Shown: positions 754 through 42,385, counted from the first letter of the stretch. The stretch: DNA of 49,001 bases from Candidatus Omnitrophota bacterium (GCA_028710685.1 JAQTTQ010000003.1:1-49001); one strand, 5' to 3'. Notes: generated from the letters alone by a model not told the origin. Program-made: numbers and translations.

Positions 754-1388
754 TTTAATCTAAGCGGACAGGTAAGGCATCTTGGCTTAACCTTCAGGCA
801 AAAATCTTTACCCAGCTTTACTAAAAGCGCGTGGTACTCATTAAATAACCTTGCGTCTTTTTTTAATCCTAACATAAAAAGCTTCTGTACTCCATCATAA
901 TCCATCCCTTCCCCTATTATGCCGTGGCGCGATAGAATCCTCTTTGTATAGGCATCCACAACAAAGACTGGCTTGCCTAAACCGTAAAGAAGGATGGAAT
1001 CTGCGGTTTCAGGCCCAATTCCGTTGACCCCAAGCAGCTCTTGCCGTAAGGCCTTGGCCTCAACTAAGGCCATCTTTCCGACATTCCCTTGATAACGCTG
1101 GATAAAAAATCTTAATAAATTCTTTAAACGCTTTGCCTTTAGATTATAATACCCGGCCGGCCGAATAAGCTTAGCTAATCTTGCGTTCTTTAAACTATAA
1201 AGCTTTTTAGGTTTAAGGAGGCCTTTATCCTTCAGGTTGCCTATTGCCTTTTCCACGTTAGGCCAGCTAGTATTCTGGGTCAGGACCGCCCCAACCATAA
1301 CCTCAAACCGGCTTTGCGCTGGCCACCACTGCTGCGGGCCAAAATAAGAATAAAGCCTGCGGTAAATTCCGGATAAACTCTTTTTCAA
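750..1388 (-). CDS. Endonuclease III-related HhH-GPD DNA glycosylase (COG2231-like)
   Basis: WWP...GAVLTQNTSW N-terminus, HhH GIGPETADSILLY, VVDAY Asp, C-terminal CX6CX2C cluster. Confidence 0.85.
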   Translation of the reverse strand: MKKSLSGIYRRLYSYFGPQQWWPAQSRFEVMVGAVLTQNTSWPNVEKAIGNLKDKGLLKPKKLYSLKNARLAKLIRPAGYYNLKAKRLKNLLRFFIQRYQGNVGKMALVEAKALRQELLGVNGIGPETADSILLYGLGKPVFVVDAYTKRILSRHGIIGEGMDYDGVQKLFMLGLKKDARLFNEYHALLVKLGKDFCLKVKPRCLTCPLRLK

Positions 1389-3337
1389 TCTTTAAATGCC
1401 AGCGGATTATAATTATAGTATGCAAAAATAGTATAAGCTGTCCCGGCAAGAGAGCCCGTAGACCTGCCTTTAGGAGTAAACCATCCATGCCCGGTATCCA
1501 CAAACTCCGAAGTAGCATAAGGAAGACAGCTCTCCCCCTGGCCCGAGGGAGAAGGGCTGGATATTATCATATTCCCCAAAGAAGAAAGGTACTCTTTTGC
1601 TTGGGCCCTGTATGCGCCTGCCCGCTCTAGATTGCCTCTTTTCGAATAAAAACCTTCCATGATCTTGAAAGATATCACCATTTGCGCAGTCCATTCAGAA
1701 GAAACTACTCCGCCACGAGCAACATGTTTTTGCGGGGCAAAATCAAAACCCTTAACCTTGACCCTATTCCCCTCAGGACGCAGGTATTCAACCTCTACCG
1801 CGCAATTCGATACCGCAAAATCCATAATGCCGTCGGGATCCATCCCCAAAACCTCCAGCTTATCCGGGCCTATAGCCGCAATTGACCAGGCATAAGTATC
1901 GGTGGCAATAGTAGAATCACCCCTTCCCCTTTTAATCGGCACATCAACTTTATCGTACGCATGTTTTATCAACCAACTCAATACCAGGCCCCGGGAATCT
2001 GCGTATTTCTTTTTACCGGTAATTTCATAAAGCATATTCAAGAAAGCATAGGCATCAAGGTTATGTTCGGTAGAATACCAGGTAACATGCGGCCCGCCTC
2101 TTAGCCCGCCCTCTCTATCCTGTTTCTGCAGTTGAATAATTGCATCCGCGATACCCTCTGCCAAAGGCAGATATTTCAAGTCTGAAGTCCTGTGGATATA
2201 TTGAGCTGCGGCAATCCCTATCCATATATTCGGTCCGCTATGCAGAATGTATTCGGAGACCTCCCCGTCCAAGGCATAATAGGCATTAAAAAACAGGCCT
2301 TCTTCTTTTTTCGCCTGGTAAAGAAAAAAATCTAGTATTTTTTGCGCGGACCCTAAATCAGAATAATACAAATAAGCCTGTGCAGCCAAAGATTGGTCAT
2401 AAATAAACGACCATCCCTTAATATCGCTGTCCCCCTCAAAGCTTATCACTAAACCTGTCCGCGGATTCTGATGCACCTTTACCCAGCGGTACATCTTATC
2501 TACATTTGCCTTTTCTAAGGTTAGTTTAATCCTGTCCAGGCGCAAGAGCTCCTCTTTAACAAGGCTTTCTTTTGCCCTTGCCAAAGAAAGCGTCTCTTCC
2601 AGGGTATTTTTTTCTTCGCTAAGCTTTTGGATCAGGTTATTTAAACTGTCCAGCTTATTTAAATACTCCTGAGAGCTAACCTTCTCTTTTTCGCTTAACC
2701 TTAATTTTTCCTCTTCGGCGGAATTAATCTGCGATATCAGATTTTCTATATTCTTATGGAGCCCTTCAGCCTCGCCCTGTATCCGGACTATCTCTTTCTT
2801 AGCAACACCTGCCTCCTGTATAACGCTTACTAATTTACGGACAAGCTCCTTATTAGCCTGGGTTAGCCTGAGGTTGATTAAGCCATTCACCCCTAATAGC
2901 AAAGAAAAGATAACTATTAACCCTATGCCCAAAGGTATTAATATTTTCCTGCCCCAGGCATAGCGCATAATCTTATTAATATACTTCTTATCCATATCCT
3001 CGTAGCAGAGTCCAATCAGATACTTATCCTTTCCGCCGCCGGCATTTTGCACCCAGGCTATCCTTGCGCGGGCAGCTACCGGCTTAGGGATAAAAGGAAG
3101 TTCCATCTCTAAAGAAATTAATGCCTGGCGACTCTTAATAATCTCAGCGGAATTCTCTCCTAAATTACCGATAGAAAGACAGAGCCCTCCGCGGCTTACA
3201 TTATTGGTAAAACCCTGGAGCCAACCGGAGAGCAACTGATTGCCTTCGAGACTTACCAACCGTATCTGCACCGGGAATACCGTATCCAAGCGCACATATT
3301 TGCGCTGTTCTTCGTTTAAGTATTTTTGCTTACCCAT
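1385..3337 (-). CDS. PilZ-domain, single-TM, coiled-coil protein with C-terminal putative six-hairpin glycosidase-like domain
   Basis: RKYVR (RxxxR) and NVSRGG (NxSxxG) PilZ motifs; hydrophobic helix ILIPLGIGLIVIFSLLLGV; E/K/L-rich heptad region; helical C-terminal domain with YDQ, GPNIW, STEHN, TDTYAW and SEWT motifs. PilZ is well supported; the C-terminal fold is inferred. Confidence 0.6.
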   Translation of the reverse strand: MGKQKYLNEEQRKYVRLDTVFPVQIRLVSLEGNQLLSGWLQGFTNNVSRGGLCLSIGNLGENSAEIIKSRQALISLEMELPFIPKPVAARARIAWVQNAGGGKDKYLIGLCYEDMDKKYINKIMRYAWGRKILIPLGIGLIVIFSLLLGVNGLINLRLTQANKELVRKLVSVIQEAGVAKKEIVRIQGEAEGLHKNIENLISQINSAEEEKLRLSEKEKVSSQEYLNKLDSLNNLIQKLSEEKNTLEETLSLARAKESLVKEELLRLDRIKLTLEKANVDKMYRWVKVHQNPRTGLVISFEGDSDIKGWSFIYDQSLAAQAYLYYSDLGSAQKILDFFLYQAKKEEGLFFNAYYALDGEVSEYILHSGPNIWIGIAAAQYIHRTSDLKYLPLAEGIADAIIQLQKQDREGGLRGGPHVTWYSTEHNLDAYAFLNMLYEITGKKKYADSRGLVLSWLIKHAYDKVDVPIKRGRGDSTIATDTYAWSIAAIGPDKLEVLGMDPDGIMDFAVSNCAVEVEYLRPEGNRVKVKGFDFAPQKHVARGGVVSSEWTAQMVISFKIMEGFYSKRGNLERAGAYRAQAKEYLSSLGNMIISSPSPSGQGESCLPYATSEFVDTGHGWFTPKGRSTGSLAGTAYTIFAYYNYNPLAFKD

Positions 3338-3338
3338 A

Positions 3339-5714
3339 TTACCTTACCTTCTCTAAGACTATCCTCTGCTTAATGGAACGGGCGAGATTTTCCATAAAAC
3401 CCTTAAACTCCGCATATTCTTCCTGAAGGACTTTATCTTTTTTGCCGTAATTTACCTGCCTTAAAAGTATTCTATTATCTTCAAATGAATATGCCTGGCT
3501 AAAGCTAAGCCAGGGACTTTCAAATTCTATATTATCCGGCATATATTTTACCACAAAATCATCCGGAAGATAAACCTCTAGCAGAAATTCTCTCTTCTCC
3601 AGCAGACCGAAATCAACCGGATATTTACGGCTCTCCTTAGCAGCAAGGGAGGTATCAATACTGGTTAGCTGCGGCATAATCCTTAAAAAACCGGCATTAG
3701 TAAAATATTCCGGGCCCTTAAAACTATAGCTTAATACGACCGGGATATTCAGATTATTCAAATTATCAATTTTATAACTATTAAGCCTTGCCCCTATCGA
3801 AACATTCTGAATTATATTCTTTAGCGTATCCTGGACTAATTCCGGCTGGGTGTAAAGCAGCCAGTAGCGCTGGCCTTGATCATAGACCCCAAAGGTAAAA
3901 TTAATTTTCTCTGCGGATATAGATTCATCGCTATTAACTTTAATCTTTAGCTTTTGCCTGATCAAATTATGCTCCGGTGGGTTAAGCGGTATTTCTTCTA
4001 TGGAATACCCCTCATCCTTAAATACCAAAACCCTGCGCCCCTGGTCTGATGAGGGCAGGTCGCCGAAAGAACAGGTCTCAGCGGTAGGATCAAGAAAAAC
4101 CGGCTTACCCTCCAGATATACGACGGCAATACAGTGATTAAATATACCCGAAGGAAAATCCTCATTCATGTTATAGTAACTCTTAGTAGCAATAAGTACC
4201 GGATAGGCCTTAAGATCGGCCTCCCTGAGCATAGTAACCAATAATATCGACTGATCCTTGCAATCCCCGTACTTATTCCTGAAGATATCTGCGGCTAAAT
4301 GAGGCTCATATCCTGCCTGGCCGTAAGCAACGGCAACATAGCGTATCTCTTTAGCGCAAAAGTTATATATTGCACGGGCCTTCTCCAAATCAGAATCCCT
4401 GCCCTTAATCAACCCCTTTACGGCATTCTTTATCTGGCTATCCGCCTTCATCTTATCTTTTGAGAGGCCCCTCCACCAGCCATACACCTGCTGCCAATCA
4501 GTAAAGGTAGATAAAAGTATCGTGGGGTTAATTTCAACATCCGCAGGCATATTCTGTTCCGGGATGATCTGAGGGATATTCTTAAACTTCCAGGAATAAA
4601 TCTTTTTTTCCTTTTTCCGGGTTTTATCCGGAATAAGGGATGCAGAAAAATTATTATACTCTTGATTAATAAGCTTTAGCCTTAGGTCTTTATCTTGGGG
4701 TAAAACAAGATTAAACTCTGCCGAGATAATCGGCTCGTAACCCTGGAGAGGATAACTTAAAAAGAAATCTTCTCGGTTTACCAGCTGGCTGCGCTTAACC
4801 TTAACCTTATATTCTAAGACTGAGCCGGCTGCTACTTCAGGGAAGGAGATGATAAATACGCGGGCATTACTGTATAAAGGAAAATTGAGGTACTTTGAAA
4901 CATCCCGGATATGCCGCGAGCCGACATAGGCAACGCTTCCGTCGGGCTTAATAGTGCGGGCAAAAATTAACTCTATCTTCTCAAAAGTAGAATCATATTC
5001 AATGGAGGATTCCGCAAAGCTTTCCTTCCCCCGCTCGTTTAAGATCTTAACCAGATAATGCATACTGGAACTGACGGTATTCTCGGCAGTTATCTCTATA
5101 TCTTCCCTTGCCAAAAGTACCAGCGCGCCTGCTTGAGGATAACGCCTTGCATCAGGAGAAGCAGATATAATTTTAGCAATCGCAGGATCTTCTTTTTTTA
5201 TATTTACAACTGCGCCCTTCCTTTCAATCCCCTCCATCCTTAAATTAACCCTATTTACAAACTCACCCCCCTTAATACCCCTGTAGGCCTTAAGCGCCTG
5301 GTCAAAAAGGTTTAGCCGCTCGCAGGTCAGCCCATAGTAATAACGGGATTCATCGTCAGGAAGAGCCATCTTGTTAAAAACTTCTAGGGCATCGGTATAA
5401 TTACCCAAATGATAGAAAGATAAAGCCAGAAACTTGCTTGCCGAAGGATGATCAGACTCTTTTAAGGCCTCCACTGCCAAGCTATATTCTCCCCGGTCAA
5501 AATAAAGCCTGCCTAACCCAAAATAGAGAGGCGCAGCATCCTTTGACTCAAGGATTAATTTTTTATAGAGGGTTTGGGCCTTCCTGAAATAAAAATCTGA
5601 CTGCTTAACATATTCCTGCGGGTCTTCTTGGGCAATAGACAATCCTAAGCCCAGGGCAAGCGTTAAAGCCGAAATGAAAATAATTATCTTATTTCTACCG
5701 CACATAGAGGCCAT
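3339..5714 (-). CDS. Exported TPR + DUF3857 + transglutaminase-like (+ DUF3858-like) protein
   Basis: N-terminal signal/TM segment, TPR-like repeats (YFGLGRLY, YYYGLTCE), FPEVAAGSVLEY (DUF3857), and GDCKDQS, FNHCI, LDPT triad motifs. Confidence 0.8.
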   Translation of the reverse strand: MASMCGRNKIIIFISALTLALGLGLSIAQEDPQEYVKQSDFYFRKAQTLYKKLILESKDAAPLYFGLGRLYFDRGEYSLAVEALKESDHPSASKFLALSFYHLGNYTDALEVFNKMALPDDESRYYYGLTCERLNLFDQALKAYRGIKGGEFVNRVNLRMEGIERKGAVVNIKKEDPAIAKIISASPDARRYPQAGALVLLAREDIEITAENTVSSSMHYLVKILNERGKESFAESSIEYDSTFEKIELIFARTIKPDGSVAYVGSRHIRDVSKYLNFPLYSNARVFIISFPEVAAGSVLEYKVKVKRSQLVNREDFFLSYPLQGYEPIISAEFNLVLPQDKDLRLKLINQEYNNFSASLIPDKTRKKEKKIYSWKFKNIPQIIPEQNMPADVEINPTILLSTFTDWQQVYGWWRGLSKDKMKADSQIKNAVKGLIKGRDSDLEKARAIYNFCAKEIRYVAVAYGQAGYEPHLAADIFRNKYGDCKDQSILLVTMLREADLKAYPVLIATKSYYNMNEDFPSGIFNHCIAVVYLEGKPVFLDPTAETCSFGDLPSSDQGRRVLVFKDEGYSIEEIPLNPPEHNLIRQKLKIKVNSDESISAEKINFTFGVYDQGQRYWLLYTQPELVQDTLKNIIQNVSIGARLNSYKIDNLNNLNIPVVLSYSFKGPEYFTNAGFLRIMPQLTSIDTSLAAKESRKYPVDFGLLEKREFLLEVYLPDDFVVKYMPDNIEFESPWLSFSQAYSFEDNRILLRQVNYGKKDKVLQEEYAEFKGFMENLARSIKQRIVLEKVR

Positions 5715-5718
5715 GAGA

Positions 5719-6327
5719 CTATTTTACATCAATAATACCCATATTAATAATCTTTTCTAAGGTAATCCGGCAGCCTGCCCTTGTTTCTATAATTGCCTTA
5801 AGACGGTTAAAAACCTTAAGGGTAAGCTCCACGTCACAAAGCGCCCTGTGGGATTGTTTGATCTTTATCCCCAGCCTCAAGGCAACAGCTGCGAGAGAAT
5901 AGCTTTCCAGGGCTGGCAGGGCATGACGTGCTATCCGTAGGATATCCAATACTATAATCCCCCTCACCCCTTCTCTACCCAGAAGCCTTAATTCATTATT
6001 TAAAAATCCCAGATCAAACCCGGCATTATAAGAGCAGAGGATACTCTCTTTTATAAAGTCCAGAAAGCCAGGTATTACCTCACCGGGAGGCGGAGCCGAT
6101 AAAAGCATCTCCTCGCTGATTTTATTAACGCTAAATGCCTGAGGGGAAACAGGCCGGCCGGGGTTAACCAAGCTATCAAAAGAGCACAGACTTTCCTCCC
6201 CCTTAAATCTTACCGCGGCCAATTCAACAACCCTATCTCCGGATTTGTAGTCTAAGCCCGTAGTCTCGGTATCAAAAATTGTAAACTCTGCCTTGTCGAT
6301 AGGGTTATCCATTATTTTTTCTCGCAA
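5719..6327 (-). CDS. DEDDh 3'-5' exonuclease (DnaQ/PolC epsilon-like)
   Basis: FDTETTG (ExoI), NAGFD (ExoII), HRALCD (ExoIII). Confidence 0.85.
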   Translation of the reverse strand: MREKIMDNPIDKAEFTIFDTETTGLDYKSGDRVVELAAVRFKGEESLCSFDSLVNPGRPVSPQAFSVNKISEEMLLSAPPPGEVIPGFLDFIKESILCSYNAGFDLGFLNNELRLLGREGVRGIIVLDILRIARHALPALESYSLAAVALRLGIKIKQSHRALCDVELTLKVFNRLKAIIETRAGCRITLEKIINMGIIDVK

Positions 6328-7204
6328 TATAGGCGGGTATCAAATATTCCGGGTGGTAGGATAATTTTACTTTCTTTAAATTCTCTAAACATGAATCATC
6401 CATAATATTTATATACCGATACCCCTTTAATTCGCCGCAGAAACAAGAAAAGATAAACTGGGCCAAACCCTTGTATGTTAAGTCGGTTATTTCATAAAGT
6501 ATACAGAAACTTTCTTTATTTATCTCAAACCCGAAAGTAAAGGCCTTGACCTTATCTTCCACCATAACCAGCACCCCCTTAAAACCCAAGTCAGAATAAT
6601 GATCCAACGCCTCTTCTAAGGCAATGCGGCTGTCCTCAATCAAGGCCTGATAAAAGTGATCTAAGTTGCCTTTTTTACGCTGGCCTGCCCAGAGAGAATA
6701 CAATTCAAGGCATTCTCTGCGGTCCTTTAAAGAAATAGCCCGGTATGAATATTTGAAGTTCTTTTTAAAATAATTACAGCTGGCCCGCTTTGATTTAAAC
6801 CTGTTCCCCTGCAAGGATTCTAATTCAGTGCGCAGGCAGAGGTAATCATGGGATTTCAGGCTGCAATCAAAACCTAGCCCGCGGTAGAACCTTAAATCTT
6901 TTGCTTCAATATTCTCGATGTGTGCAAATCCAGGGTTTAAGTTCAGCTTTATAAGTACCTCAAAAACCTTTTTCACTACCCTAGGGTCGCATTCTACAGC
7001 CAGAGGGGATAAATATAGGAAGGCGCCGATTTTATCCTTAAAAAAAACGCAAAGGCTTTTTCTTATAATTACCCAGCGTATATCAAAGAATTTATTCCAG
7101 ATATAAATATTGGCAAAGGCATAAGCAGATAAGCCGTGGGGTTTTAATCTAAGATATTTATCGAATATCTTTTTATCGCCAATGGATAATTTATTTAGAA
7201 TCAT
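6305..7204 (-). CDS. DUF2156 / aminoacyl-phosphatidylglycerol synthase C-terminal-like (tandem GNAT) soluble protein
   Basis: FQGNRFKSKR-like segment, GLAQFI, YINIMDDSCLENLKKVKLSYHP matching the YINREEDLG...LRKAKLSYHP pattern; no TM domain. Confidence 0.7.
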   Translation of the reverse strand: MILNKLSIGDKKIFDKYLRLKPHGLSAYAFANIYIWNKFFDIRWVIIRKSLCVFFKDKIGAFLYLSPLAVECDPRVVKKVFEVLIKLNLNPGFAHIENIEAKDLRFYRGLGFDCSLKSHDYLCLRTELESLQGNRFKSKRASCNYFKKNFKYSYRAISLKDRRECLELYSLWAGQRKKGNLDHFYQALIEDSRIALEEALDHYSDLGFKGVLVMVEDKVKAFTFGFEINKESFCILYEITDLTYKGLAQFIFSCFCGELKGYRYINIMDDSCLENLKKVKLSYHPEYLIPAYIARKNNG

Positions 7205-8287: not shown

Positions 8288-8599
8288 ATGAAGAAAATAG
8301 GTTTATTGGTAGTATTAGTTTCCTTAACAGTAATGCTGGTAGGATGCGCAACGCCGTTTCCATACGGGGCTTTCTACACAGAGATAAAGGCTCCTGTTGC
8401 TGCTACCGGGGGAGTATCTTACAGTAGGGTAGGTACGGCAAAATCTACTTCTATCCTGGGTTTAGTTGCAACCGGTGACTCAAGCATTAAAACTGCTGCG
8501 TCTAACGGCGGGATCAAAACCATCAAATATGTTGATTATGACGCCAAAAATATACTCGGCATCTACGGCGAATATACTACAACTGTATACGGCGACTAA
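8288..8599 (+). CDS. TRL-like family lipoprotein
   Basis: Lipobox LVGC; GTAKSTSILGLVATGDSSIKTAASNGGIKTIKYVDY...ILGIYGEYTTTVYG is the TRL pattern; own promoter, SD and terminator. Confidence 0.75.
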   Translation: MKKIGLLVVLVSLTVMLVGCATPFPYGAFYTEIKAPVAATGGVSYSRVGTAKSTSILGLVATGDSSIKTAASNGGIKTIKYVDYDAKNILGIYGEYTTTVYGD

Positions 8600-8790: not shown

Positions 8791-9222
8791 TTAATCAATC
8801 TGCTGCGCCGTCAAGAATACTGACTTAGCTAAGGCGTCGAAGAAATTCTGGTAAGGCCCGGGTGAATTTATAGCCTTAATCCCGTACTGGGCATTTGCCC
8901 TCACTAAAAGCTGCTTACTCCCCTTCTCCCTGGTGATAACCGTCATCTTTAAGACCTGGCTATCGACAAACTTAGTAGCCGTAACTATCCCTAAATCATA
9001 ATCCGCCTTGGTAATTACAAAATCTAAATCCTGTAAAGTGGCCATAATACTGCGCATCATCTTTTCTTTATCGCTGGTATCAAATGCCCGGGTCTGGATA
9101 CTGCGAAGCTTAAGCTGATCTTGGCTTAAGTCAAGGATGCGCTCCTGCGTTGTAGTTGCGCAACCCAATATCAAAAAAACTAACAATGATACCGCTAAAA
9201 ATTTAATTTTTATTCGCTTCAT
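8791..9222 (-). CDS. Uncharacterised lipoprotein, paralog of the 9219-9782 protein
   Basis: Lipobox ILGC; RSIQTRAFDT...LQDLDF...LGIVTATK...YQNFFDALAKSVFLTAQQI. Confidence 0.7.
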   Translation of the reverse strand: MKRIKIKFLAVSLLVFLILGCATTTQERILDLSQDQLKLRSIQTRAFDTSDKEKMMRSIMATLQDLDFVITKADYDLGIVTATKFVDSQVLKMTVITREKGSKQLLVRANAQYGIKAINSPGPYQNFFDALAKSVFLTAQQID

Positions 9223-10695: not shown

Positions 10696-12465
10696 TTATT
10701 TCTCCTCAATAAGAGGCTTATAGTTAAACCCACTCCATTTTATATCCAGATGGCTACAAAATTCAAGCACATTTAATCTCACCCCGTGGACAAGAATAGA
10801 TAAAGGCCCTAAAACAATATTTAAAAAATGGCCTACCAAGAGTATCAGCGAGGTCAACAGCCCCGAGATAAAGTTTCCGAAACCCACCTCCATTGCCATT
10901 TTATTAAATGCATCTGCCACAGCCAGGGTAGCTAATCCTACTGCAAAAAGACGGATATAAGAAACAATGTCTGTAAAATTATTCATGGCGTTAAAAAGCA
11001 GGGCCCCTAATCCGCTGCCTATAGCCTTAAAGATATTTTTCTGAGGGTTACTAAATAAAACAATCAAAAATGCCCCGGGGATCAAGAGATAGAGATAAAA
11101 CCCCGCAAGGGCCTCACCTAAAACAAGCAGCTTAGCGATAAGAAAGGCTGTCCACAATATCAGTATCCATCCTATATCCGCCAGGAAGGAGGGTGCGGGA
11201 AATTTTAAGATCCCCTTCCAGGCATGCGCGATACTCAAATGCAGGGCTCCTAAAAAGAAACAAAATGACTGCATATTTTTATCATTGCGCAAAGAAGGAA
11301 GCAGCGGCTTAACCCAGACAGGAAGCCATTCTTGGCCGAAGAATGTGGCGGTAAGTACTCCCCAGATAATGGCACAACCGCTTAAAAGGTATAAAAGAAT
11401 AAAAACCGACTTATCATTGCATCTAAAACCCCATTTTTTCTCTGCCCAGAAGGTAAGAATTAAATACGCGGACCCGTATCCGGCATCACCGATTAATATA
11501 CCGAAGAATAATGAGAAAAAAACGAGAAACCACAGGCTTATATCCAACTCCTTATATCCCGGGACAACCTCAATTATCCTGAAAACAGGGTTAATTATAC
11601 TCAACCACTTAGGGTTGCGCACCAAGGTCGGGATACTATCGCCTTCTGCGGGGTCAGAGGTTAAAACAGCCCATCCCCAAGACCTGGCAGATTCTTCGAT
11701 CTTATCCTTAGAATCAAATGGTATATATCCTTTAATATACATTAAGGCCCCTTCCTGGGCCATCCCTGCCAATGCCTCATGAAACTGAATCTCCCGGATA
11801 AGCTTATTACGGGTTTCTCTTAAAAGGTCCAGATAAACAACCTGCCTTAAGAAATCAGCCTTCAGTAATTCAGCGGTTTTGATATCTTCGGCAAACCTCT
11901 CCTGCATTCTAATTAGGGAATCCTTTGGCAATTCTACCTCCTTAAAAGGAATCCCTATATCAGCCTGCGTAAAAATAACGCAGTTATGGAGCTTGCCCTT
12001 ACTGCTTACCTTTTCCAGGTAAGCCCCCTTAGGAAGCTGGGCTATCTGCTCATCGGAAAGTTTATAAAAACCCGCGGATATGCCGTTTACACCAAGGCGG
12101 TTAATCTCCTGCGGGTCAAAATCACCCCATTCTCTCAATTTCTCGATTTTAGAAGAAAGGGTTAAAGAATACTCCTGCAGCTGCTGATAGCGCTTGTTTA
12201 AATCGATAATATGGCGCGCTAATACATCCCACTCTGCCGTTTGCTTATTTCCTGTATCAACGATATCCTTTTTATCTATCCCCTCCAATAAAGATATCGC
12301 CTGGACTAAAAGGGATAGGTCCTTGCTCAAGGCAGTAAGCTTTTCCCCTTTAGGGGTATTTAAATGCTCAACATGCAAAATACCTAACTTACGGACCTTC
12401 TCAAGTAAACCCTGGGCATCTTTAGCCTGCATCACCAAAAAAACTTTTTTCATCGGTACAATCAT
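10696..12465 (-). CDS. atpI: V-type ATP synthase subunit I
   Basis: MIVPMKK, FGILIGDAGYG, DIVSYIRLFAVGLA, HGVRLNVLEF. Confidence 0.93.
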   Translation of the reverse strand: MIVPMKKVFLVMQAKDAQGLLEKVRKLGILHVEHLNTPKGEKLTALSKDLSLLVQAISLLEGIDKKDIVDTGNKQTAEWDVLARHIIDLNKRYQQLQEYSLTLSSKIEKLREWGDFDPQEINRLGVNGISAGFYKLSDEQIAQLPKGAYLEKVSSKGKLHNCVIFTQADIGIPFKEVELPKDSLIRMQERFAEDIKTAELLKADFLRQVVYLDLLRETRNKLIREIQFHEALAGMAQEGALMYIKGYIPFDSKDKIEESARSWGWAVLTSDPAEGDSIPTLVRNPKWLSIINPVFRIIEVVPGYKELDISLWFLVFFSLFFGILIGDAGYGSAYLILTFWAEKKWGFRCNDKSVFILLYLLSGCAIIWGVLTATFFGQEWLPVWVKPLLPSLRNDKNMQSFCFFLGALHLSIAHAWKGILKFPAPSFLADIGWILILWTAFLIAKLLVLGEALAGFYLYLLIPGAFLIVLFSNPQKNIFKAIGSGLGALLFNAMNNFTDIVSYIRLFAVGLATLAVADAFNKMAMEVGFGNFISGLLTSLILLVGHFLNIVLGPLSILVHGVRLNVLEFCSHLDIKWSGFNYKPLIEEK

Positions 12466-14379: not shown

Positions 14380-16119
14380 TTAAGCACTGCCTTTTTTATT
14401 TCCTTCTATAAGTATATCCAGCTCCTCTTCGATCTTACGAAATTCCTCAAGGTTAAATTCCGTAGAATTCCAGCCCTTAAAGAGCTGTTTCAGTTTTTGA
14501 AAGAATTGCAGTGCCTGATTCTTCTCTTTAAAATCAAAATTACCCTCCAAGATACCGCGGATAAACCCGAAAATATATTCCTGTCTTTCCTGTGAAGTTG
14601 CCTCATCCACAGAATCAAAGGCATTTTGCTGCAGGTATACCGAATCAAAAAATTCACCCTTAAGATAATCAACGTAATCTTGCAGGGATGTCCCTTCCTC
14701 TCCGATCACCTTCATCATCTGCATAATATTATTACTTTTTATTAAAACCTTATGCCCGAGCTGCCTATCGGCTTCCTTAATAAAGCTCTGATATTTACTC
14801 CAACTTATTAAAGGATCTATTGCCGGATATTTTCTTGCGTCTGAACGCTCCCGGGATAAACCGTGAAAGGCACCGACCACCTTTAATGTTGCCTGAGTTA
14901 CCGGTTCCTCAAAATTGCCTCCGGCAGGGCTAACCGTGCCTCCGATAGTAACTGACCCAAGATCTCCGCTATGCAGACGGACAAGCCCGGCCCGTTCATA
15001 AAATGAAGCTATGCGCGATTCAAGATACGCAGGAAAGGCCTCTTCCCCCGGGATCTCCTCAAGCCTGCCGGACATTTCCCGCATTGCCTGTGCCCAGCGG
15101 GAAGTTGAATCCGCCAGCAGCAATACATTCAACCCCATCTGCCTATAATATTCGGCGATCGTAACTGCCGTATATACGCTGGACTCCCTAGCGGCAACAG
15201 GCATAGAGCTGGTATTGCAAATAATTACCGTTCTGTCGCTTAAGGGCTTATTGGTCCTTGGGTCAACAATATTGGGGAATGTCTTTAATGTTTCCACTAC
15301 CTCCCCGGCGCGCTCACCGCATGCAGCAATAATTACGATATCAACCTGCGCATGCCGGCTAGTCAACTGTTGCAATACGGTCTTGCCCGCGCCAAATGGC
15401 CCGGGGATACAATATGTACCTCCCCTTGCCACCGGGAACAATGAGTCTATTAACCGCATTTTTGTCACCAGGGCCTGGGAAGGCTTTAACTTTTCAGCAA
15501 AGGCCTTGATAGGAATTTTTATCGGCCAGAACTGGCGTAGATAAACATCGCAGATCTTACCTTCTTCGTTTTTTAATTGTGCTATTTTTTCTTTTACGGT
15601 GTATTCTCCTGCGGGGACAATATAAACTACTTCCCAAACTCCCTTTAGATTAAAAGGAACCATGCAATAGTGTTTAAATATCTTCTCCGGCACAGAACCC
15701 AGCCTGAATCCGGAAATTACCCGATCCCCTAGCGAGGCCAGAGGCGTAAAGTCCCATTTTACTTTATCGGATAAGGCTTCTAAATATATTCCTCTCTTAA
15801 GAAAAAAACCATATTTTTGTGCTAAGGCAGGAAGCGGATTCTGCAGGCCATCGAATATCTGCCCCAAAAGCCCCGGCCCTAATTCTACAGAGATGAGTTC
15901 ATTCGTAAATTCAACCTTATCGCCTACCCCAAGACCGGAGGTGCTCTCGTAAACCTGCATCTGGGCTAATTGCCCGCGTACCCTGATAACTTCGGATTTT
16001 AAGCGTTCATTCTTATGCAAAATATAGGCAGTCTCATTCTGGACAACTGCGCCCTCAACATTTGCGCTGACCATATTGCCGTTAACCCTAGAGATATATC
16101 CGGTTCTTATATTATTCAT
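14380..16119 (-). CDS. atpA: V-type ATP synthase subunit A
   Basis: Walker A GPFGAGKT, CGERAGE, DSTSRWAQAMREMSGRLEEIPGEEAFPAYL. Confidence 0.96.
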   Translation of the reverse strand: MNNIRTGYISRVNGNMVSANVEGAVVQNETAYILHKNERLKSEVIRVRGQLAQMQVYESTSGLGVGDKVEFTNELISVELGPGLLGQIFDGLQNPLPALAQKYGFFLKRGIYLEALSDKVKWDFTPLASLGDRVISGFRLGSVPEKIFKHYCMVPFNLKGVWEVVYIVPAGEYTVKEKIAQLKNEEGKICDVYLRQFWPIKIPIKAFAEKLKPSQALVTKMRLIDSLFPVARGGTYCIPGPFGAGKTVLQQLTSRHAQVDIVIIAACGERAGEVVETLKTFPNIVDPRTNKPLSDRTVIICNTSSMPVAARESSVYTAVTIAEYYRQMGLNVLLLADSTSRWAQAMREMSGRLEEIPGEEAFPAYLESRIASFYERAGLVRLHSGDLGSVTIGGTVSPAGGNFEEPVTQATLKVVGAFHGLSRERSDARKYPAIDPLISWSKYQSFIKEADRQLGHKVLIKSNNIMQMMKVIGEEGTSLQDYVDYLKGEFFDSVYLQQNAFDSVDEATSQERQEYIFGFIRGILEGNFDFKEKNQALQFFQKLKQLFKGWNSTEFNLEEFRKIEEELDILIEGNKKGSA

Positions 16120-33040: not shown

Positions 33041-35473
33041 CTATTCTTCCGCCTCAGCAATGACCGGGGCAACGCAGGAAATATGATCCTTACCCTGCAG
33101 CTTTATTAACCGGACCCCCTGAGAAGAACGTCCGGTCTCGCGAATATCCTTTACCGCACAACGTAAAAATATACCATTTTGGGTAATAACCATTAGCTCA
33201 TCATCATCGCTTACGGTTTTAAGGTTTACGGCTTCGCCGTTTTTATCGGTAACCTTTATATTGATAACCCCCTTGCCTCCGCGCGAGGTGAGCCTGTATT
33301 CATCTACGGTGGTGCGCTTAGCAAAACCCAAGGAGGTAACCGTTAATATAGCTGCTCCTTTTTGAGGGATTACCAGATCTATCACTTCATCTTTTTTATC
33401 TAAAGATACTCCTCTTACCCCGCGCGCGCCCCTGCCCATATCCCTTACCTTGGACTCCAAGAATCTGATCGCCTTACCCCGGCGCGTGCCAATTAAAAGC
33501 TCCTGTTTTCCATCAGTCATCTCAACACCTATTAACGCATCGCCTTTATCAAGGGTAATACCGATAATTCCGCCCTTACGCGGGTTGCCATAAGCATCAA
33601 GCTTAGTCTTTTTGATCTGGCCAAGCCTTGTTGCCATCACCAAATACCTATCGCTTGCAAATTCCTTAACCGGCACAGTAGAGCTGATTTTAGAGCCCTG
33701 TTCCATCTGCAATAAATTGATTATCGCCTTACCCTTAGAGACGCGGCTTGCCTGGGGGATTTCATAAACCTTAAGCCAATGCACCTGACCCTTATCCGTA
33801 AAAATCAGCAGATAATCTTTTGTAGAGGCCACAAAGAGATGCTCAATAAAATCCTCCTCCTTAACCTCGGCGCCGGTAACCCCTTTGCCTCCGCGCTTCT
33901 GCTTGCGATAAGAACTAACCGGAAGGCGCTTAATATAACCTCCGTGGCTAATAGTTACCACCACATCTTCCTCGGCAATCAAATCTTCAACCTCAAGTTC
34001 CTCTACCTCTCCCACGATATCAGTTCTGCGTTCATCGCCATATTTCTTCTTTAACTCTTCCAGCTCATATTTGATAATGCCTTCGATCTTCTTCTCGGAA
34101 GCTAAAATCGAACGGCATAATTCTATTTTCTTAAGAAGCTCGGCATATTCTGCGTCTATTTTATCGCGCTCCAGGGCAGTTAAACGCTGTAGCTGCATCT
34201 CCAAAATTGCCTGAGCCTGTATTTCGGATAAGCCAAACTCCTTCATCAAATTCACCCTGGCTACATCTACGCTCTTGGATGTTTTAATCACCTTAATAAT
34301 CCGGTCTATAAACTTAAGCGCTATCTTTAAGCCCTCTAAGATATGCGCCCTCCTCAGGGCTTTATCCAGTTCAAATTGAGTCCGGCGGCGGATGATAATT
34401 TTCCGGTGCTCGATATAGCAATCGAGAACCTGCTTTAAATTCAAAACCTTAGGCCTATTCTCAACCAAGGCCAGCATGATAATGCCAAAGGTGGTCTCTA
34501 GTTGCGTATGTTTAAAGAGCTGATTTAAGATAATCTGGGCTTCAACGTCGCGCTTCAACTCAACCGCAATACGCATTCCATCTTTGTCCGACTCATCGCG
34601 TATATCTGAGATGCCTTCAATTTTCTTATCGTCAACTAGGCCGGCGATAGCCTCTATGAGGGAAGATTTCTGTACCTGGTAAGGAATCTCGGTTATAATA
34701 ATCAGGTCCTTACCGTTCTTCTGGTGCTCAACGGTTGCCCGGGCGCGCACGGTAAGCTTGCCTCGTCCGGTTGTATAGGCATCCTTAATCCCCCCTTTAC
34801 CGCAGATTACCCCGCCCGTAGGAAAATCCGGGCCCTTGATATAACGCATCAGGTCTTTTATCTCAGCCGAAGGATTATCCAAAAGATACATTATCGCATC
34901 AGCCACCTCATGCAAATTATGCGGAGGAATATTAGTAGCCATGCCTACGGCAATGCCGCTGGACCCGTTTACTAAGAGATTAGGGAGGGCTGCCGGCAAT
35001 AAAAGCGGCTCCTTAAGAGAAGCGTCAAAATTCGGCCCGAAATTTACAGTCTCCTTATCGATATCGCCTAACATCACCTCAGCAATAGCGGCAAGGCGCG
35101 CCTCAGTATACCTCATCGCAGCAGCAGCATCCCCGTCAACTGAACCGAAGTTTCCCTGCCCATCCACTAAGGGATAACGCAGGGAAAAATCCTGTGCCAT
35201 TCTCACCAAGGTATCATAAACCGCCACATCGCCATGGGGATGATATTTACCTAAAACCTCTCCGACAATACGCGCGCATTTTTTATAAGACTTGGAGTGG
35301 TCCAAATTAAGTTCTTGCATAGCATAGAGTATCCTCCTATGCACAGGCTTTAGGCCGTCGCGCACATCAGGCAGGGCGCGCCCTACAATTACGCTCATCG
35401 CGTAATTTAAATACGCATCCTTTACCTCTTCCTCAATATAGATAGGAACTACTTTTTCATTGCGTGTATACAT
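33041..35473 (-). CDS. gyrA: DNA gyrase subunit A
   Basis: [22 protein letters not shown] (catalytic Tyr), GyrA-box QKRGGKG. Confidence 0.97.
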
Positions 35474-36261: not shown

Positions 36262-38999
<2,738 letters not shown>

Positions 39000-39004
39000 G
39001 CCGC

Positions 39005-40096
39005 CTAGCTTAACCGCATAGGTAAAACGATATACGTATAACCATTGATCCGAATAACCCCGGGTTTTTCACTATCGGTCAATTCTAAATCCAGAGATTC
39101 TTCGTTCAGGTTTTTTAAAACATCCGCCAGATAAGCCGGATTAAACCCGATAGCCAACTCTTTACCCTGATAACTAATCTGTATCTCTTCGCGCGATTCC
39201 CCTATATCCGGGGTAGACTTAGAAACAACCAGTTTATTTTTAAAAACCTCCAGCTTAACCGCCTGATAATCCGGGGTAGATAATAACGCCGCCCGTTTAA
39301 CTGATAACAAAAACGCTTCCCGGCTAACCCGCATTTTATTATCTGTGGGCGGAGGAATAACCTGTTTATAGTCGGGGAATTCCCCTTCAATTAAACGAGA
39401 AATTACCGTAACGCTGCCCAATTCAAACAACGCCTGATTTCCGCCCAAAACCAACGACAACTCCCCCTCCTCTTGCAGGTTCCGGTTAAGTTCATGAACC
39501 GTTTTAATAGGAACGATTATATTAATATCCTTATTAGAGCCGGTGGTAAGTTTTTTTTCTGCTACCGCCAGCCGCTTACCGTCGGTTGCCACCAAGGTAA
39601 TGGTATTTTTGCCGATCTTAAAAAGAATACCGTTTAATATATACCTGCTTTCATCCATAGACACGGAGAAAGACGTAAGCCGCAACATCTCCTTAAGCTC
39701 GCCCTGGTCTAATTTTACAACCTCTTTATCTTTAAATTCTGGCAGCCGCGGGAACTCTTCTTTAGCCAATCCCATCACCCTAAATTGGCATAGATCAGCT
39801 TCAATACTAACCTGATTATTTTTTTTGGTAGAGATCTGGACTGACTCGCCGGGTAATTCCTTAATGATATCGCTAAATCTTTTAGCCGGTATAGTAACCG
39901 CACCTGCCTCCTGAATATCAACAGGTATTACACAGGTTATACCTATATCTAAATCCGTGGCCGTCAGCCTTAGATTTTCCTGCAGTGTTTCTATTAATAC
40001 GTTGGAAAGTATGGGTAAACTAGCCTTAGAGATAATAACGTTTTGCACTGTTTGTATACCGCTCAAAAGCACACTCTTACTAATTTTAACCTTCAT
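39005..40096 (-). CDS. dnaN: DNA polymerase III beta clamp
   Basis: LPILSN, ATDL, VATDGKRLA, SRLIEGEFPDY, IVLPMR. Confidence 0.96.
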   Translation of the reverse strand: MKVKISKSVLLSGIQTVQNVIISKASLPILSNVLIETLQENLRLTATDLDIGITCVIPVDIQEAGAVTIPAKRFSDIIKELPGESVQISTKKNNQVSIEADLCQFRVMGLAKEEFPRLPEFKDKEVVKLDQGELKEMLRLTSFSVSMDESRYILNGILFKIGKNTITLVATDGKRLAVAEKKLTTGSNKDINIIVPIKTVHELNRNLQEEGELSLVLGGNQALFELGSVTVISRLIEGEFPDYKQVIPPPTDNKMRVSREAFLLSVKRAALLSTPDYQAVKLEVFKNKLVVSKSTPDIGESREEIQISYQGKELAIGFNPAYLADVLKNLNEESLDLELTDSEKPGVIRINGYTYIVLPMRLS

Positions 40097-40110
40097 TTCG
40101 ATCTCCTTAC

Positions 40111-40207
40111 TATTTATTATTTAATATATTAAAATAGCAATAGTAGTAATACGGCGCTAATCTGTGTATAAGGTTACAACCCCCCTGTCGTTATATAGTT
40201 ATACCCA
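40111..40207. other. oriC: oriC unwinding region (DnaA box, GC motif, DnaA-trios, AT cluster)
   Basis: Minus strand TTATACACA (40163-40171)-gatta-GCGCCG-TATTACTACTATTGCTA-AT cluster; second box TTATACCCA at 40199-40207. Confidence 0.75.
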
Positions 40208-40233
40208 AAAAAGGCCTTGGATATTCCTGGGAT

Positions 40234-41595
40234 TTACTGTTTGATTATATGTATAATTCTTTCCACCTTTTCGTGCAGTGAGGGGTTTTTGTTGATCTCC
40301 TCTTTAATTTTATTATAAGAATGCAAGACTGTGGTATGGTCTTTGCCGCCGAAAAATTGCCCTACCTCTGGTAGGGATAAATCAGTTAACTCTCGGCTTA
40401 GGTACATAGCGACTTGCCTGGGCAGAACTATAGTTTTATTTCTGCGGCGCGTTTTTAAATCTCCTAAAGAGACCCCAAATTCTTCCGCGGTGCAGCGTTG
40501 GATAAAATCTATAGTAATAAGCTTCTTGGGTTCTTTTAATAAGTCCCTTAAAACGTCTTTGGCAAGTTCTATGGTAATGGGCTTTTCTTCCATTAAAGAA
40601 TAGGCCATTGTCCGAACCAGCGCTCCCTCTAACTCCCGGATGTTGGTTTTAATAAGTTGGGCAATAAAAAATATAACGTCATCCGGCACTACCACCGGCT
40701 CTCTTTCGATCTTTTTCTTTAATATAGCTACGCGAGTCTCCAAATCAGGCGGCTGGACATCGGTGGTTAACCCCCATCCAAAGCGAGAGACGAGCCTTTC
40801 CTGGAGGTCTGCTATTTCCTTGGGAGGCCTGTCCGAGGAGAGTATAATTTGCTTGTGGGCATCGTAAAGCGCGTTAAAAGTATGGAAAAACTCCTCTTGG
40901 GTAGAGTCCTTCCCCCCGAAGAAATGAACATCATCGATAACTAAAATGTCAGAATTCCTGTATTTTTGCCTAAAGGCCATTGTAGAGTGGCGCTGTATAG
41001 CGTTAATTAATTCATTCGTAAACTGCTCAGAAGGTAAATAGGTAATTTTTAGCTTGGCAGAGGCATTCGCCTTTATTTTATGGCAGATGGCTTGAATTAA
41101 ATGGGTTTTGCCCAGCCCTACCCCTCCGTATATAAATAAAGGATTATAAGCTTTAGCCGGCGCTTCTGACACAGCCATAGAATAGGCGTGTGCATGGCGG
41201 TTGGACGTACCGATAACAAAATTCTCAAAAGTATAACGGCTGTTCAAGCGTACGCCGTATTGATTATCTACTTCTTGCGTAAAAACATGCGGCTGTCTTA
41301 TTTCAATGGCAGCGGCCTGTTGTTGTGCTGCTTCCACGGTAACAGTTGTTGCCGGTGAGCTATGGGATTTAATTGCTTCCTCTAGAACGGAGCCGTAGTT
41401 TTTTTGTACCCAATCCCTAAAAAAGGTATCCGGGGCTTCAAGCACAATGGAGCCTGGGCTTGTTACTTTGGCCTTGAGAGGTAAAATCCAGGTTTCATAG
41501 ACTATTGCCTCGAGGCGCTCTTTCAGTGTGTTACGTGCCTGTTCCCAGGCTATTATCAGGTCATGCATTTTGGGTGTTATCAACAGTTTATTCAC
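40234..41595 (-). CDS. dnaA: Chromosomal replication initiator DnaA (start may be ATG 41568)
   Basis: YNPLFIYGGVGLGKTHL, IDDV, LVSRFGWG, PRQVAMYL, GGKDHTTV. Confidence 0.97.
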   Translation of the reverse strand: MNKLLITPKMHDLIIAWEQARNTLKERLEAIVYETWILPLKAKVTSPGSIVLEAPDTFFRDWVQKNYGSVLEEAIKSHSSPATTVTVEAAQQQAAAIEIRQPHVFTQEVDNQYGVRLNSRYTFENFVIGTSNRHAHAYSMAVSEAPAKAYNPLFIYGGVGLGKTHLIQAICHKIKANASAKLKITYLPSEQFTNELINAIQRHSTMAFRQKYRNSDILVIDDVHFFGGKDSTQEEFFHTFNALYDAHKQIILSSDRPPKEIADLQERLVSRFGWGLTTDVQPPDLETRVAILKKKIEREPVVVPDDVIFFIAQLIKTNIRELEGALVRTMAYSLMEEKPITIELAKDVLRDLLKEPKKLITIDFIQRCTAEEFGVSLGDLKTRRRNKTIVLPRQVAMYLSRELTDLSLPEVGQFFGGKDHTTVLHSYNKIKEEINKNPSLHEKVERIIHIIKQ

Positions 41596-41618
41596 ACCTT
41601 GAATAAATCTGTGGAAAA
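41577..41618. promoter_or_regulatory. Three DnaA boxes at the dnaA 5' end
   Basis: TTATCAACA (41577-85, 1 mismatch), TTATTCACA (41588-96), TGTGGAAAA (41610-18). Confidence 0.75.
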
Positions 41619-41715
41619 TTTTTTTGTTTTAAATATTCAACCAGGCTTATCTGGGACGGAAAAAACACGCTCTTCAATTTACTAAATTGCTTAATTTCAT
41701 TTAAAAGCGTAAAAG

Positions 41716-41793
41716 ATTATAACAGAAACCAAAGCAGTTGCAAGTAAAAAAGATAAGCGTTAGTTATTATACAATGCTTTTGGCAGACGTCAA
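41716..41793 (-). promoter_or_regulatory. Two tandem dnaA promoters
   Basis: TTGCAA-16-TATAAT (41743 to 41716, extended TG) and TTGACG-16-TATAAT (41793 to 41766). Confidence 0.7.
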
Positions 41794-41906
41794 TCAAAAA
41801 TAACTCATCCTTAATTCAGGGGGCTTCTTTTACCAAGGAAGGCCTGCAGTTTTTAGGCTGACCAGGTCCCCGGTTATTCGCCGCCGCCTGAATTTATCGA
41901 CGAGTC

Positions 41907-41936
41907 TGTGGATACCGATGAGGTGCTTGTGTATAA
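41907..41936. promoter_or_regulatory. Two DnaA boxes between dnaA and rpmH
   Basis: TGTGGATAC (41907-15, 1 mismatch) and TGTGTATAA (41928-36, consensus). Confidence 0.7.
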
Positions 41937-41961
41937 CTTGTAGCTTAAGTAAAATTACCCA

Positions 41962-41989
41962 TTGACGAGCTAAGCTTTTGTGTTATAAT
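41962..41989 (+). promoter_or_regulatory. rpmH operon promoter
   Basis: TTGACG-16 nt-TATAAT with extended TG. Confidence 0.75.
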
Positions 41990-42031
41990 TATCAACCATT
42001 ATACGTAAAGGTGCTTTGGGGGGGTTAAAAA

Positions 42032-42169
42032 ATGAAAAAAAATCTTAAGACGCCGACAAATATTGTTGGTAAAAGAAAGTTAGGGTTCCGCAGCAAGATG
42101 GCTACCCGCAGAGGCCGTAAGCTCCTGGCCCGGCGCAGGCGCAAGGGTAGAAAAAAGCTCTGCTTTTAA
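42032..42169 (+). CDS. rpmH: 50S ribosomal protein L34
   Basis: Not in the ORF track. [45 protein letters not shown] (45 aa); GFR..M, RRRxKGR motifs; divergent from dnaA. Confidence 0.9.
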
Positions 42170-42384
42170 TGCTTAAAAGGACAGCCTTATTTTTAGTAAA
42201 AGGGTATCAAGCCCTTTCACGGTGGGCGTTGCCTCCATCCTGTCGCTTTGTACCGAGCTGCTCAGAGTATACAAAGCAGGCAATTGTAAAATACGGATTA
42301 TTAAAAGGTATATTAAAAGGAGTCAGGAGAATATCCTCGTGCCACCCGTTTTCCGGCAGGTTTGGATATGATCCCCTGGATTAA
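42169..42384 (+). CDS. yidD: Membrane protein insertion efficiency factor YidD
   Basis: [21 protein letters not shown]...GYDP. Confidence 0.9.
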
Positions 42385-42385
42385 T

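Follow-up and report, generated by a model that had tools for sequence, protein, structure and literature searches.

A predicted single-protein c-di-GMP effector of Omnitrophota joining a PilZ domain across the membrane to a putative glycan-active six-hairpin toroid

Known effectors of cyclic di-guanosine monophosphate (c-di-GMP) act on cytoplasmic or membrane-embedded machines, as in the case of BcsA, YcgR and Alg44, or, like LapD, hold a separate periplasmic protease. LapD is a degenerate EAL sensor with HAMP and GGDEF domains and a small, non-enzymatic periplasmic domain, and LapG, the protease, is a transglutaminase-like cysteine protease. In the LapD-LapG system of Pseudomonas fluorescens, c-di-GMP binding in the cytoplasm is relayed across the inner membrane to a periplasmic output (PMC3032553, PMC3032545). 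Alg44, the alginate co-polymerase of Pseudomonas aeruginosa, consists of an N-terminal canonical PilZ domain, one transmembrane helix and a periplasmic HlyD/membrane-fusion-like domain, and is encoded in the alginate operon; the C-terminal helix of its PilZ domain is important for dimerisation (10.1101/814665). The protein described here is encoded in a 49,001-nucleotide stretch of DNA from Candidatus Omnitrophota bacterium (GCA_028710685.1, JAQTTQ010000003.1:1-49001), which was analysed as a whole and is referred to as the window. Judged from its sequence, this protein is somewhat more probably than otherwise a bitopic inner-membrane, one-protein "inside-out" c-di-GMP effector with a putative periplasmic glycan-active toroid.

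The layout of an N-terminal PilZ domain, one transmembrane helix and a periplasmic domain is common to Alg44 and the window protein, and an Alg44-like arrangement carrying a possible catalytic domain had been proposed in the first-pass annotation of this DNA. The layout was found as proposed, whereas the HlyD-like domain and the exopolysaccharide operon of Alg44 were not: no HlyD-type match is present in the window protein according to Pfam, the periplasmic domain is a predicted toroid with enzyme-like carboxylates, and no polysaccharide operon is found around the gene. As in LapD, a cytoplasmic sensor is joined to a periplasmic output, and the gene is often preceded by one for an exported transglutaminase-like protein. 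In contrast to LapD, the sensor is a PilZ domain and the output is a 371-residue enzyme-like toroid, while the transglutaminase-like partner is absent in half of the lineages; searches with Pfam and NCBIfam models revealed no HAMP or GGDEF-EAL domains in the window protein, with PilZ being the only domain of its cytoplasmic part.

The gene is an uninterrupted open reading frame of 650 codons with an ATG at position 3337, and its features are as follows (window positions, strand, description, basis).

1385..3337 (-), whole gene: PilZ domain, transmembrane helix, helical stalk and (alpha/alpha)6 toroid; open reading frame list and translation.
2960..3310 (-), cytoplasmic PilZ domain, residues 10-126; Pfam PF07238 and a genome-wide PilZ scan with identical coordinates.
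3290..3304 (-), RxxxR motif R12-K-Y-V-R16; position check and homologue conservation.
3185..3202 (-), (D/N)xSxxG motif N46-V-S-R-G-G51; position check and homologue conservation.
2870..2944 (-), single transmembrane helix, residues 132-156; hydrophobicity, flank charge and model.
2501..2869 (-), predicted periplasmic helical stalk, residues 157-279; 3.5-residue periodicity and model helices.
1388..2500 (-), predicted periplasmic (alpha/alpha)6 toroid, residues 280-650; AlphaFold2, Foldseek and profile matches to GH76.
2396..2398 (-), D314 (Y313-D314-Q315), first turn of inner helix 1, candidate catalytic or substrate-binding carboxylate; conservation and model.
2231..2236 (-), G368-P369, site of the catalytic Asp-Asp pair of GH76; profile alignment.
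2066..2068 (-), E424 (T-E-H-N), first turn of inner helix 3; conservation, helix begins at 423.
1898..1900 (-), D480 (T-D-T-Y-A-W), first turn of inner helix 4; conservation, helix begins at 479.
1694..1696 (-), E548 (S-S-E-W-T), first turn of inner helix 5; conservation, helix begins at 547.

All of the motifs named in the first-pass annotation lie at the residues given for them (RKYVR at 12-16, NVSRGG at 46-51, YDQ at 313-315, GPNIW at 368-372, YSTEHN at 421-426, TDTYAW at 479-484 and SSEWT at 546-550), and the overall architecture and topology of the PilZ-transmembrane-stalk-toroid protein are held with very high confidence. The protein has more than 1489 homologues, which appear in the databases as "PilZ domain-containing protein", as "hypothetical" or, wrongly and owing to the coiled coil, as "Lpp". 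The mean identity amounts to 70% in the C-terminal domain, 54% in the PilZ domain and 43% in the stalk, which makes the toroid the best conserved part.

The match of residues 10-126 to the Pfam PilZ family (PF07238; E 5.2e-7) scores 30.4 bits against a cut-off of 22.5, and the family model is matched by 32/32 aligned homologues. The profile of these 32 homologues reaches the PilZ domain of YpfA/MotI from Bacillus subtilis (5vx6), with the RxxxR and GG motifs aligned. In the homologue alignment (A1), R12 and R16 are conserved to at least 90%, and G50 and G51 are invariant. Of 154 full-length homologues, 149 have RxxxR, 146 have [DN]x[SGA]xxG and 142 have both motifs, in agreement with the initial description of an N-terminal PilZ domain in which both ligand motifs are intact. 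The genome of the organism (1.24 Mb, about 90% complete) contains five GGDEF and seven PilZ loci, which indicates that c-di-GMP signalling is present. According to the survey of Galperin and Chou, PilZ domains within fusion proteins retain c-di-GMP binding, while some stand-alone PilZ proteins have lost it (10.1101/814665). For control of the periplasmic domain by c-di-GMP, as predicted from these sequence features, the chances appear evenly balanced.

The sole hydrophobic segment of the protein spans residues 132-156 (Kyte-Doolittle 19-residue mean, 2.78) and coincides with the one transmembrane helix expected at about residues 130-155. Its PilZ-side, cytoplasmic flank carries six K/R and one D/E, and P135 within it is invariant in alignment A1. 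The full-length AlphaFold2 model (pLDDT, the per-residue model confidence, 79.7) has one unbroken helix from residue 117 to residue 216, in which the C-terminal helix of the PilZ domain is continuous with the transmembrane helix; unlike in Alg44, no linker is found between the two. After a short break, a model helix of residues 223-288 enters the barrel, so that the last helix of the stalk is also the first helix of the barrel.

Within the stalk (157-279), hydrophobic periodicity is strongest at 3.5 residues (p = 0.0005, a power reached by 0.05% of 2000 shuffles), and these approximately 123 residues with heptad periodicity correspond to the coiled coil of about 125 residues that had been noticed at first reading. 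L158, N162, L165 and L169, invariant in alignment A1, form a heptad core beside the membrane, where the buried Asn162 suggests a parallel dimer. Insertions and deletions are concentrated at about residues 207-222, where the monomer model turns, that is, the stalk of the AlphaFold monomer is a hairpin with the hot spot at its tip; homologues differ in stalk length by -12, -8, -7, +6, +7 and +18, which are multiples of seven only in part. The stalk may fold back as a helical hairpin, about 9 nm long, or extend as a continuous coiled coil to about 18 nm.

LpxC and a BamA-type Omp85 protein are encoded in the same genome, which implies that the cell has an outer membrane and a periplasm. The stand-alone relatives of the toroid (about 370-450 amino acids) start with a signal peptide or a lipobox. 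Together with the single transmembrane helix that follows the cytoplasmic PilZ domain, these observations bear out the proposal that the C-terminal domain lies outside the cytoplasm.

The 371-residue C-terminal domain was modelled separately from an alignment of 24 sequences with 27-49% identity to the query. The resulting AlphaFold2 model (pLDDT, 95.2; predicted template-modelling score, 0.94) has six inner and six outer helices and two beta-hairpins. All of the 50 Foldseek matches listed from the PDB are sugar-active enzymes, apparently all six-hairpin toroids, and include MmpH (7QSJ), the 5Z3A glycosidase series, YihS, cellobiose and GlcNAc 2-epimerases, GH76 mannanases, beta-1,2-glucanases and GH126. 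The (alpha/alpha)6 six-hairpin fold supposed from the sequence alone was thus recovered, at template-modelling (TM) scores of 0.60-0.67, root-mean-square deviations (rmsd) of 5-7 Å and identities of 10-18%; the full-length model gives the same picture. Residues 280-650 of the window protein have no match to any Pfam or NCBIfam family, and a single-sequence phmmer search against the PDB returned nothing below E 0.1. In a domain search over 1.84 billion cluster representatives, 818 clusters matched at the threshold of E <= 0.001. The likeness of the modelled toroid to known sugar enzymes is one of fold, without a family-level match.

The best Foldseek match (E 7e-9; TM score, 0.65/0.70) is MmpH, the mycobacterial endo-mannosidase acting on methylmannose polysaccharide, which is a soluble cytoplasmic enzyme. 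It differs from the toroid in sequence (identity 13%, no sequence-level match) and superposes with an rmsd of about 5 Å. The central cavity of the MmpH (alpha/alpha)6 barrel is acidic; its catalytic acid lies near the first inner helix (D47/D50) and the base, E262, on a late helix (PMC9883506). By chain position, not by superposition, these residues resemble D314 and E548 of the window protein.

At the sequence level, the profile of the toroid family matched GH76 entries only when compared with the PDB (4mu9, E 1.8e-4; 6u4z, 1e-3; 4c1s, 8e-3). The window protein itself has no match to Pfam Glyco_hydro_76 (PF03663) at E <= 1, while 23/32 homologues match this family at E <= 0.1, mostly under the 25.9-bit cut-off, and 2/6 re-scanned orthologues exceed it (31.2 and 30.0 bits) over model positions 26-196 of 366. 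The toroid has the (alpha/alpha)6 fold and an N-x-W motif after the catalytic position in common with the GH76 alpha-1,6-mannanases and Dfg5-type transglycosylases, at a structural TM score of only about 0.6. In GH76 enzymes, a pair of neighbouring aspartates serves as nucleophile and acid/base (BcGH76 D124/D125, ShGH76 D136/D137; PMC9213526). In the profile alignment, the sequence YYDDNIW of 4mu9 lies opposite tGPNaW, and D136/D137 of ShGH76 fall on the two profile positions of G368-P369, so the adjacent catalytic Asp-Asp pair is not found in the toroid according to this alignment. Residue counts were made over 234 domains with at least 300 aligned positions, copies from giant proteins included; G368 is present in 230/234 and P369 in 205/234 of them. 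Because the aspartate pair is replaced by a conserved Gly-Pro, true membership of GH76 was rejected, and the toroid family is, by sequence comparison, a distant relative of GH76 that is predicted to be unable to use the GH76 mechanism. The glycosidase-like character assigned to the domain in the first-pass annotation is therefore kept in a refined form: the fold and the carboxylates stand, the nearest sequence family is GH76, and the catalytic pair of that family is missing.

Four carboxylates are conserved in nearly all of the 234 domains, namely D314 (229/234), E424 (232/234), D480 (232/234) and E548 (233/234); the carboxylates of the acidic motifs singled out at first reading are each kept in at least 229 copies. 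Y313 (231/234), Y607 (230/234) and W372 (221/234) accompany them, and H425 and H617 are present in 199/234 and 191/234 domains, respectively. Two cysteines, C512 and C604, do not vary within the clade of PilZ-fused forms. According to the model, inner helices 1, 3, 4 and 5 each have one of the four carboxylates (D314, E424, D480 and E548, respectively) as their first or second residue; inner helix 1 begins at residue 312 (domain residue 33), inner helix 2 begins with GPNIW, and the loop ahead of inner helix 6 contains Y607. In six-hairpin enzymes, such positions at the start of inner helices line the central funnel on one face, and from the toroid topology we infer that the conserved residues cluster about one cavity. 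That the toroid is an enzyme-like domain with true catalysis is, on this sequence evidence, favoured slightly.

Further indications of a link to glycans come from the relatives of the toroid. Toroid modules are also found inside multi-domain and giant Omnitrophota proteins, in frames of 3,000 to 57,000 amino acids, and some relatives stand beside CBM30/CBM11-like modules, a GH2-like barrel or a subtilase. In one Omnitrophota sister family, the same PilZ-transmembrane-coiled-coil module is mounted on a GH2-like TIM barrel (Pfam Glyco_hydro_2_C, 3e-8; closest PDB entry 9fz9, 2.3e-14) instead of the toroid. The strongest indirect argument for glycan processing as the output is that two unrelated glycosidase folds share one sensor module. 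The glycan link suspected in the first-pass annotation gains from both the fused modules and this exchange of barrels, and a glycan-directed function of the toroid protein is considered likely from sequence.

For giant Omnitrophota proteins, GH76-like (4C1S) and cellobiose 2-epimerase folds have been predicted and linked to cell-wall degradation, and pilZ genes adjoin the giant genes (West-Roberts et al., 10.1101/2023.11.21.568195). The giant proteins contain the same toroid domain family as the window protein. In their case, however, surface modules are proposed to act against prey cell walls and the pilZ genes are small and separate, whereas here PilZ and toroid are fused within one protein of 650 amino acids. 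The PilZ-fused toroids form a clade of their own, apart from the giant-protein modules: in a FastTree phylogeny of 114 domains, one clade (local support 89) unites all PilZ-fused forms to the exclusion of the secreted and giant-protein copies, and a single fusion event fits this topology.

The distribution of the gene was assessed in 201 genomes drawn evenly across Omnitrophota. Some match was found in 65/201 genomes and the full architecture in 45/201, including 16/16 genomes with a strong match in the family of the window organism, many families of its class and few elsewhere. PilZ-toroid thus belongs to the core genes of a lineage and not of the whole phylum; a "phylum-wide, near-universal" gene was considered and rejected on these counts. 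The gene occurs as a single, strongly conserved copy in genomes of only 1.2-2 Mb, and this points to an important role in these uncultivated bacteria. The orthologue in a genome from the genus of the window organism (G075:C82:3286-5237) is divided between two frames, covering residues 1-93 and 85-650, as a result of either a frameshift or an assembly error.

Stand-alone relatives of the toroid occur mostly in Omnitrophota, but also in metagenome-assembled genomes (MAGs) labelled Desulfobacterota (Trichloromonas, Desulfuromonas), Elusimicrobia and Brevinematales, as well as in the cultured Desulfosarcina cetonica. The latter (strain JCM 12296; L035 5827-7202) is the only cultured organism found with a stand-alone toroid homologue. 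Its match is spread over two frames that overlap (5827-6768 and 6597-7202), a pattern suggestive of a frameshift, sequencing error or pseudogene, and this copy was not used.

The variant with the GH2-like barrel is a protein of 699 amino acids (L007 888-2987 (-), genome G027; also in G049, G029 and G105) with a small beta-rich insert. By sequence, the start of its gene overlaps an apparent LpxA-type hexapeptide-repeat acyltransferase gene. It reads WND at the acid/base site where clan GH-A has NEP, and its acid/base may be an aspartate or may have been lost.

Based on these features, the following course of action may be proposed for the PilZ-toroid protein. The cytoplasmic PilZ domain would bind c-di-GMP, probably in a dimer, and ligand binding would move the continuous element of PilZ helix, transmembrane helix and stalk, whose last helix enters the toroid. 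The periplasmic domain would thereby be switched with respect to its activity, oligomeric state or reach. The conserved carboxylates, together with Y313, W372 and Y607, would line the barrel funnel as the active site of a hydrolase, transglycosylase or lyase by which an envelope glycan is cut or transferred. The exported transglutaminase-like protein encoded just upstream may act jointly with the PilZ-toroid protein in about half of the lineages. A further-reaching proposal, put forward tentatively and regarded as possible rather than probable, is that the toroids constitute an unrecognised six-hairpin family at the CAZy level, with catalytic carboxylates on other helices than those of GH76 and with secreted, giant-protein-mounted and PilZ-fused formats. 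The fused form would then be the first case of c-di-GMP gating of a periplasmic glycan cutter in one polypeptide, a mechanical switch along one helix that remodels the cell's own envelope, in some lineages with a transglutaminase-like peptidase.

In the window, the stop codon of the upstream gene and the ATG of the PilZ-toroid gene are separated by 1 nt, the GAAGG/AAGG ribosome-binding stretch of the latter lies within the last codons of the former, and the downstream gene begins right after the PilZ-toroid stop codon. The upstream gap and the downstream start place the PilZ-toroid gene in the middle of a tight co-directional block. The upstream gene is the following.

3339..5714 (-), exported TPR + DUF3857 + transglutaminase-like core protein of 791 amino acids, frequent partner; Pfam and translation.

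Its product matches Pfam DUF3857 (2.2e-31), Transglut_core (3.6e-10) and TPR families, and the N-terminus is hydrophobic in translation. In about 20/45 PilZ-toroid genomes, the PilZ-toroid gene is immediately preceded on its strand by a transglutaminase-like gene, with a gap of less than 60 nt in 13; such a gene is absent from one genus of the window's family and from many other families. It is a frequent, not an obligatory partner.

Several observations weigh against an effector with a glycan-cutting toroid. With the GH76 catalytic pair missing from its sequence, the toroid could be a non-catalytic derivative. In fold, the toroid matches AGE-type isomerases and epimerases, none of them glycosidases, just as well, and the TM score does not exceed 0.67 at an rmsd of 5-7 Å. 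The neighbours of the gene form a housekeeping block (tRNA-binding protein, RNase T, endonuclease III-like protein and M20 peptidase) with no polysaccharide locus, and the uninformative surroundings of a stand-alone homologue (L030, from a deltaproteobacterial MAG) contain no glycan genes. The replacement of the Asp-Asp pair by Gly-Pro would be in line with a toroid that serves as a non-catalytic docking or scaffold receptor for a glycan or a partner, without cutting it, an explanation that is considered rather unlikely. Modelled on LapD-LapG, c-di-GMP would decide on hold or release of the upstream transglutaminase-like protein, and both the adjacency of that gene in the window and its position in nearly half of the genomes suit this version, LapG being a transglutaminase-like cysteine protease controlled by LapD. 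Modelled on Alg44, the protein would be a co-polymerase or scaffold, as Alg44 itself has the same PilZ-transmembrane-periplasmic layout and is not an enzyme (10.1101/814665). The partner is, however, absent from about half of the PilZ-toroid genomes, including a whole genus of the window's family, and the alternative output mounted on the same module is a GH2-like barrel. Moreover, the four carboxylates are equally conserved in secreted and giant-protein copies that have neither PilZ nor such a partner, and an intrinsic activity fits this better than lineage-specific docking.

An activity other than glycan cutting is considered improbable, whether that of an AGE-type isomerase or epimerase with a mono- or oligosaccharide of the periplasm as substrate or that of some other six-hairpin enzyme. 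YihS, cellobiose 2-epimerase, mannose isomerase and GlcNAc 2-epimerase score like glycosidases in Foldseek (TM score, 0.62-0.67), some members of the family have weak Pfam GlcNAc_2-epim matches below the cut-off, AGE enzymes have a catalytic histidine pair on their inner helices, and the two histidines H425 and H617 are fairly well conserved; yet the sequence profiles reach GH76 and not AGE, and the best-conserved residues are the carboxylates, not the histidines. AGE enzymes are known as cytoplasmic and soluble, whereas the toroid family is exported, with fusions to CBMs, to a GH2-like barrel and to giant surface proteins. On the sensor side, the PilZ domain might no longer signal and act only as a cytoplasmic anchor or interaction module below a constitutive periplasmic domain. 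The modest score of 30.4 bits, the scores of some orthologues below the cut-off (e.g., 19.9 and 22.1 bits) and the loss of binding in some stand-alone PilZ proteins (10.1101/814665) would agree with such a silent domain. It is nevertheless thought very improbable, given that both binding motifs persist in 142/154 homologues over deep divergence, that c-di-GMP binding is preserved in the PilZ domains of fusion proteins (10.1101/814665) and that the genome, with five GGDEF loci in 1.24 Mb, makes c-di-GMP.

The inside-out effector with a glycan-active toroid, which is the reading preferred here, has no described counterpart in the sources consulted. No description of a PilZ-glycosidase-like fusion or of this protein was found in full-text literature searches, and fusions of the PilZ-toroid type are not mentioned in the PilZ survey of Galperin and Chou (10.1101/814665). 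This accords with the remark in the first-pass annotation that no characterised protein of this architecture was recognised; the combination of a bitopic PilZ receptor, or inside-out c-di-GMP effector, with an unrecognised six-hairpin output family is not in the literature searched. If true, it would represent a new output class, in which the processing of envelope glycans is placed under second-messenger control by a single protein, and the PilZ-toroid protein would be a compact system in which to study signal transfer across the membrane by a single helix. The barrel family, which has no curated model, recurs in giant Omnitrophota proteins proposed to degrade prey cell walls, and for this reason the 371-residue domain offers a tractable route to the function of the giant-protein modules.

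Some minor observations were made in the surroundings of the gene and elsewhere in the window. In three relatives (L001, L003 and L005), the hydrogenase-maturation genes hypF-C/hypC/hypD separate the RNase T gene from the transglutaminase-like or PilZ gene. The hyp genes are missing at this place in the window (5719-6327), and the RNase T gene is without the WYL domain that the relatives have. The small open reading frames 8288-8599 (+) and 8791-9222 (-) encode lipoprotein-like N-termini, with LVGC at residues 17-20 and ILGC at residues 27-30, respectively. An open reading frame of 589 codons at 10696-12465 (-), which matches no Pfam family at E <= 1e-5, adjoins a gene with ATP-synthase alpha/beta-family domains (14380-16119). 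The region 39005-43912 is an apparent chromosomal replication origin region. On the minus strand, dnaA (40234-41595), dnaN (39005-40096), gyrB (36262-38715) and gyrA (33041-35473) are found, and yidC (42362-43912) lies on the plus strand. The sign of the GC skew and the gene orientation switch at about 40-42 kb, and the 766-nt gap at 41596-42361 is the likely oriC.

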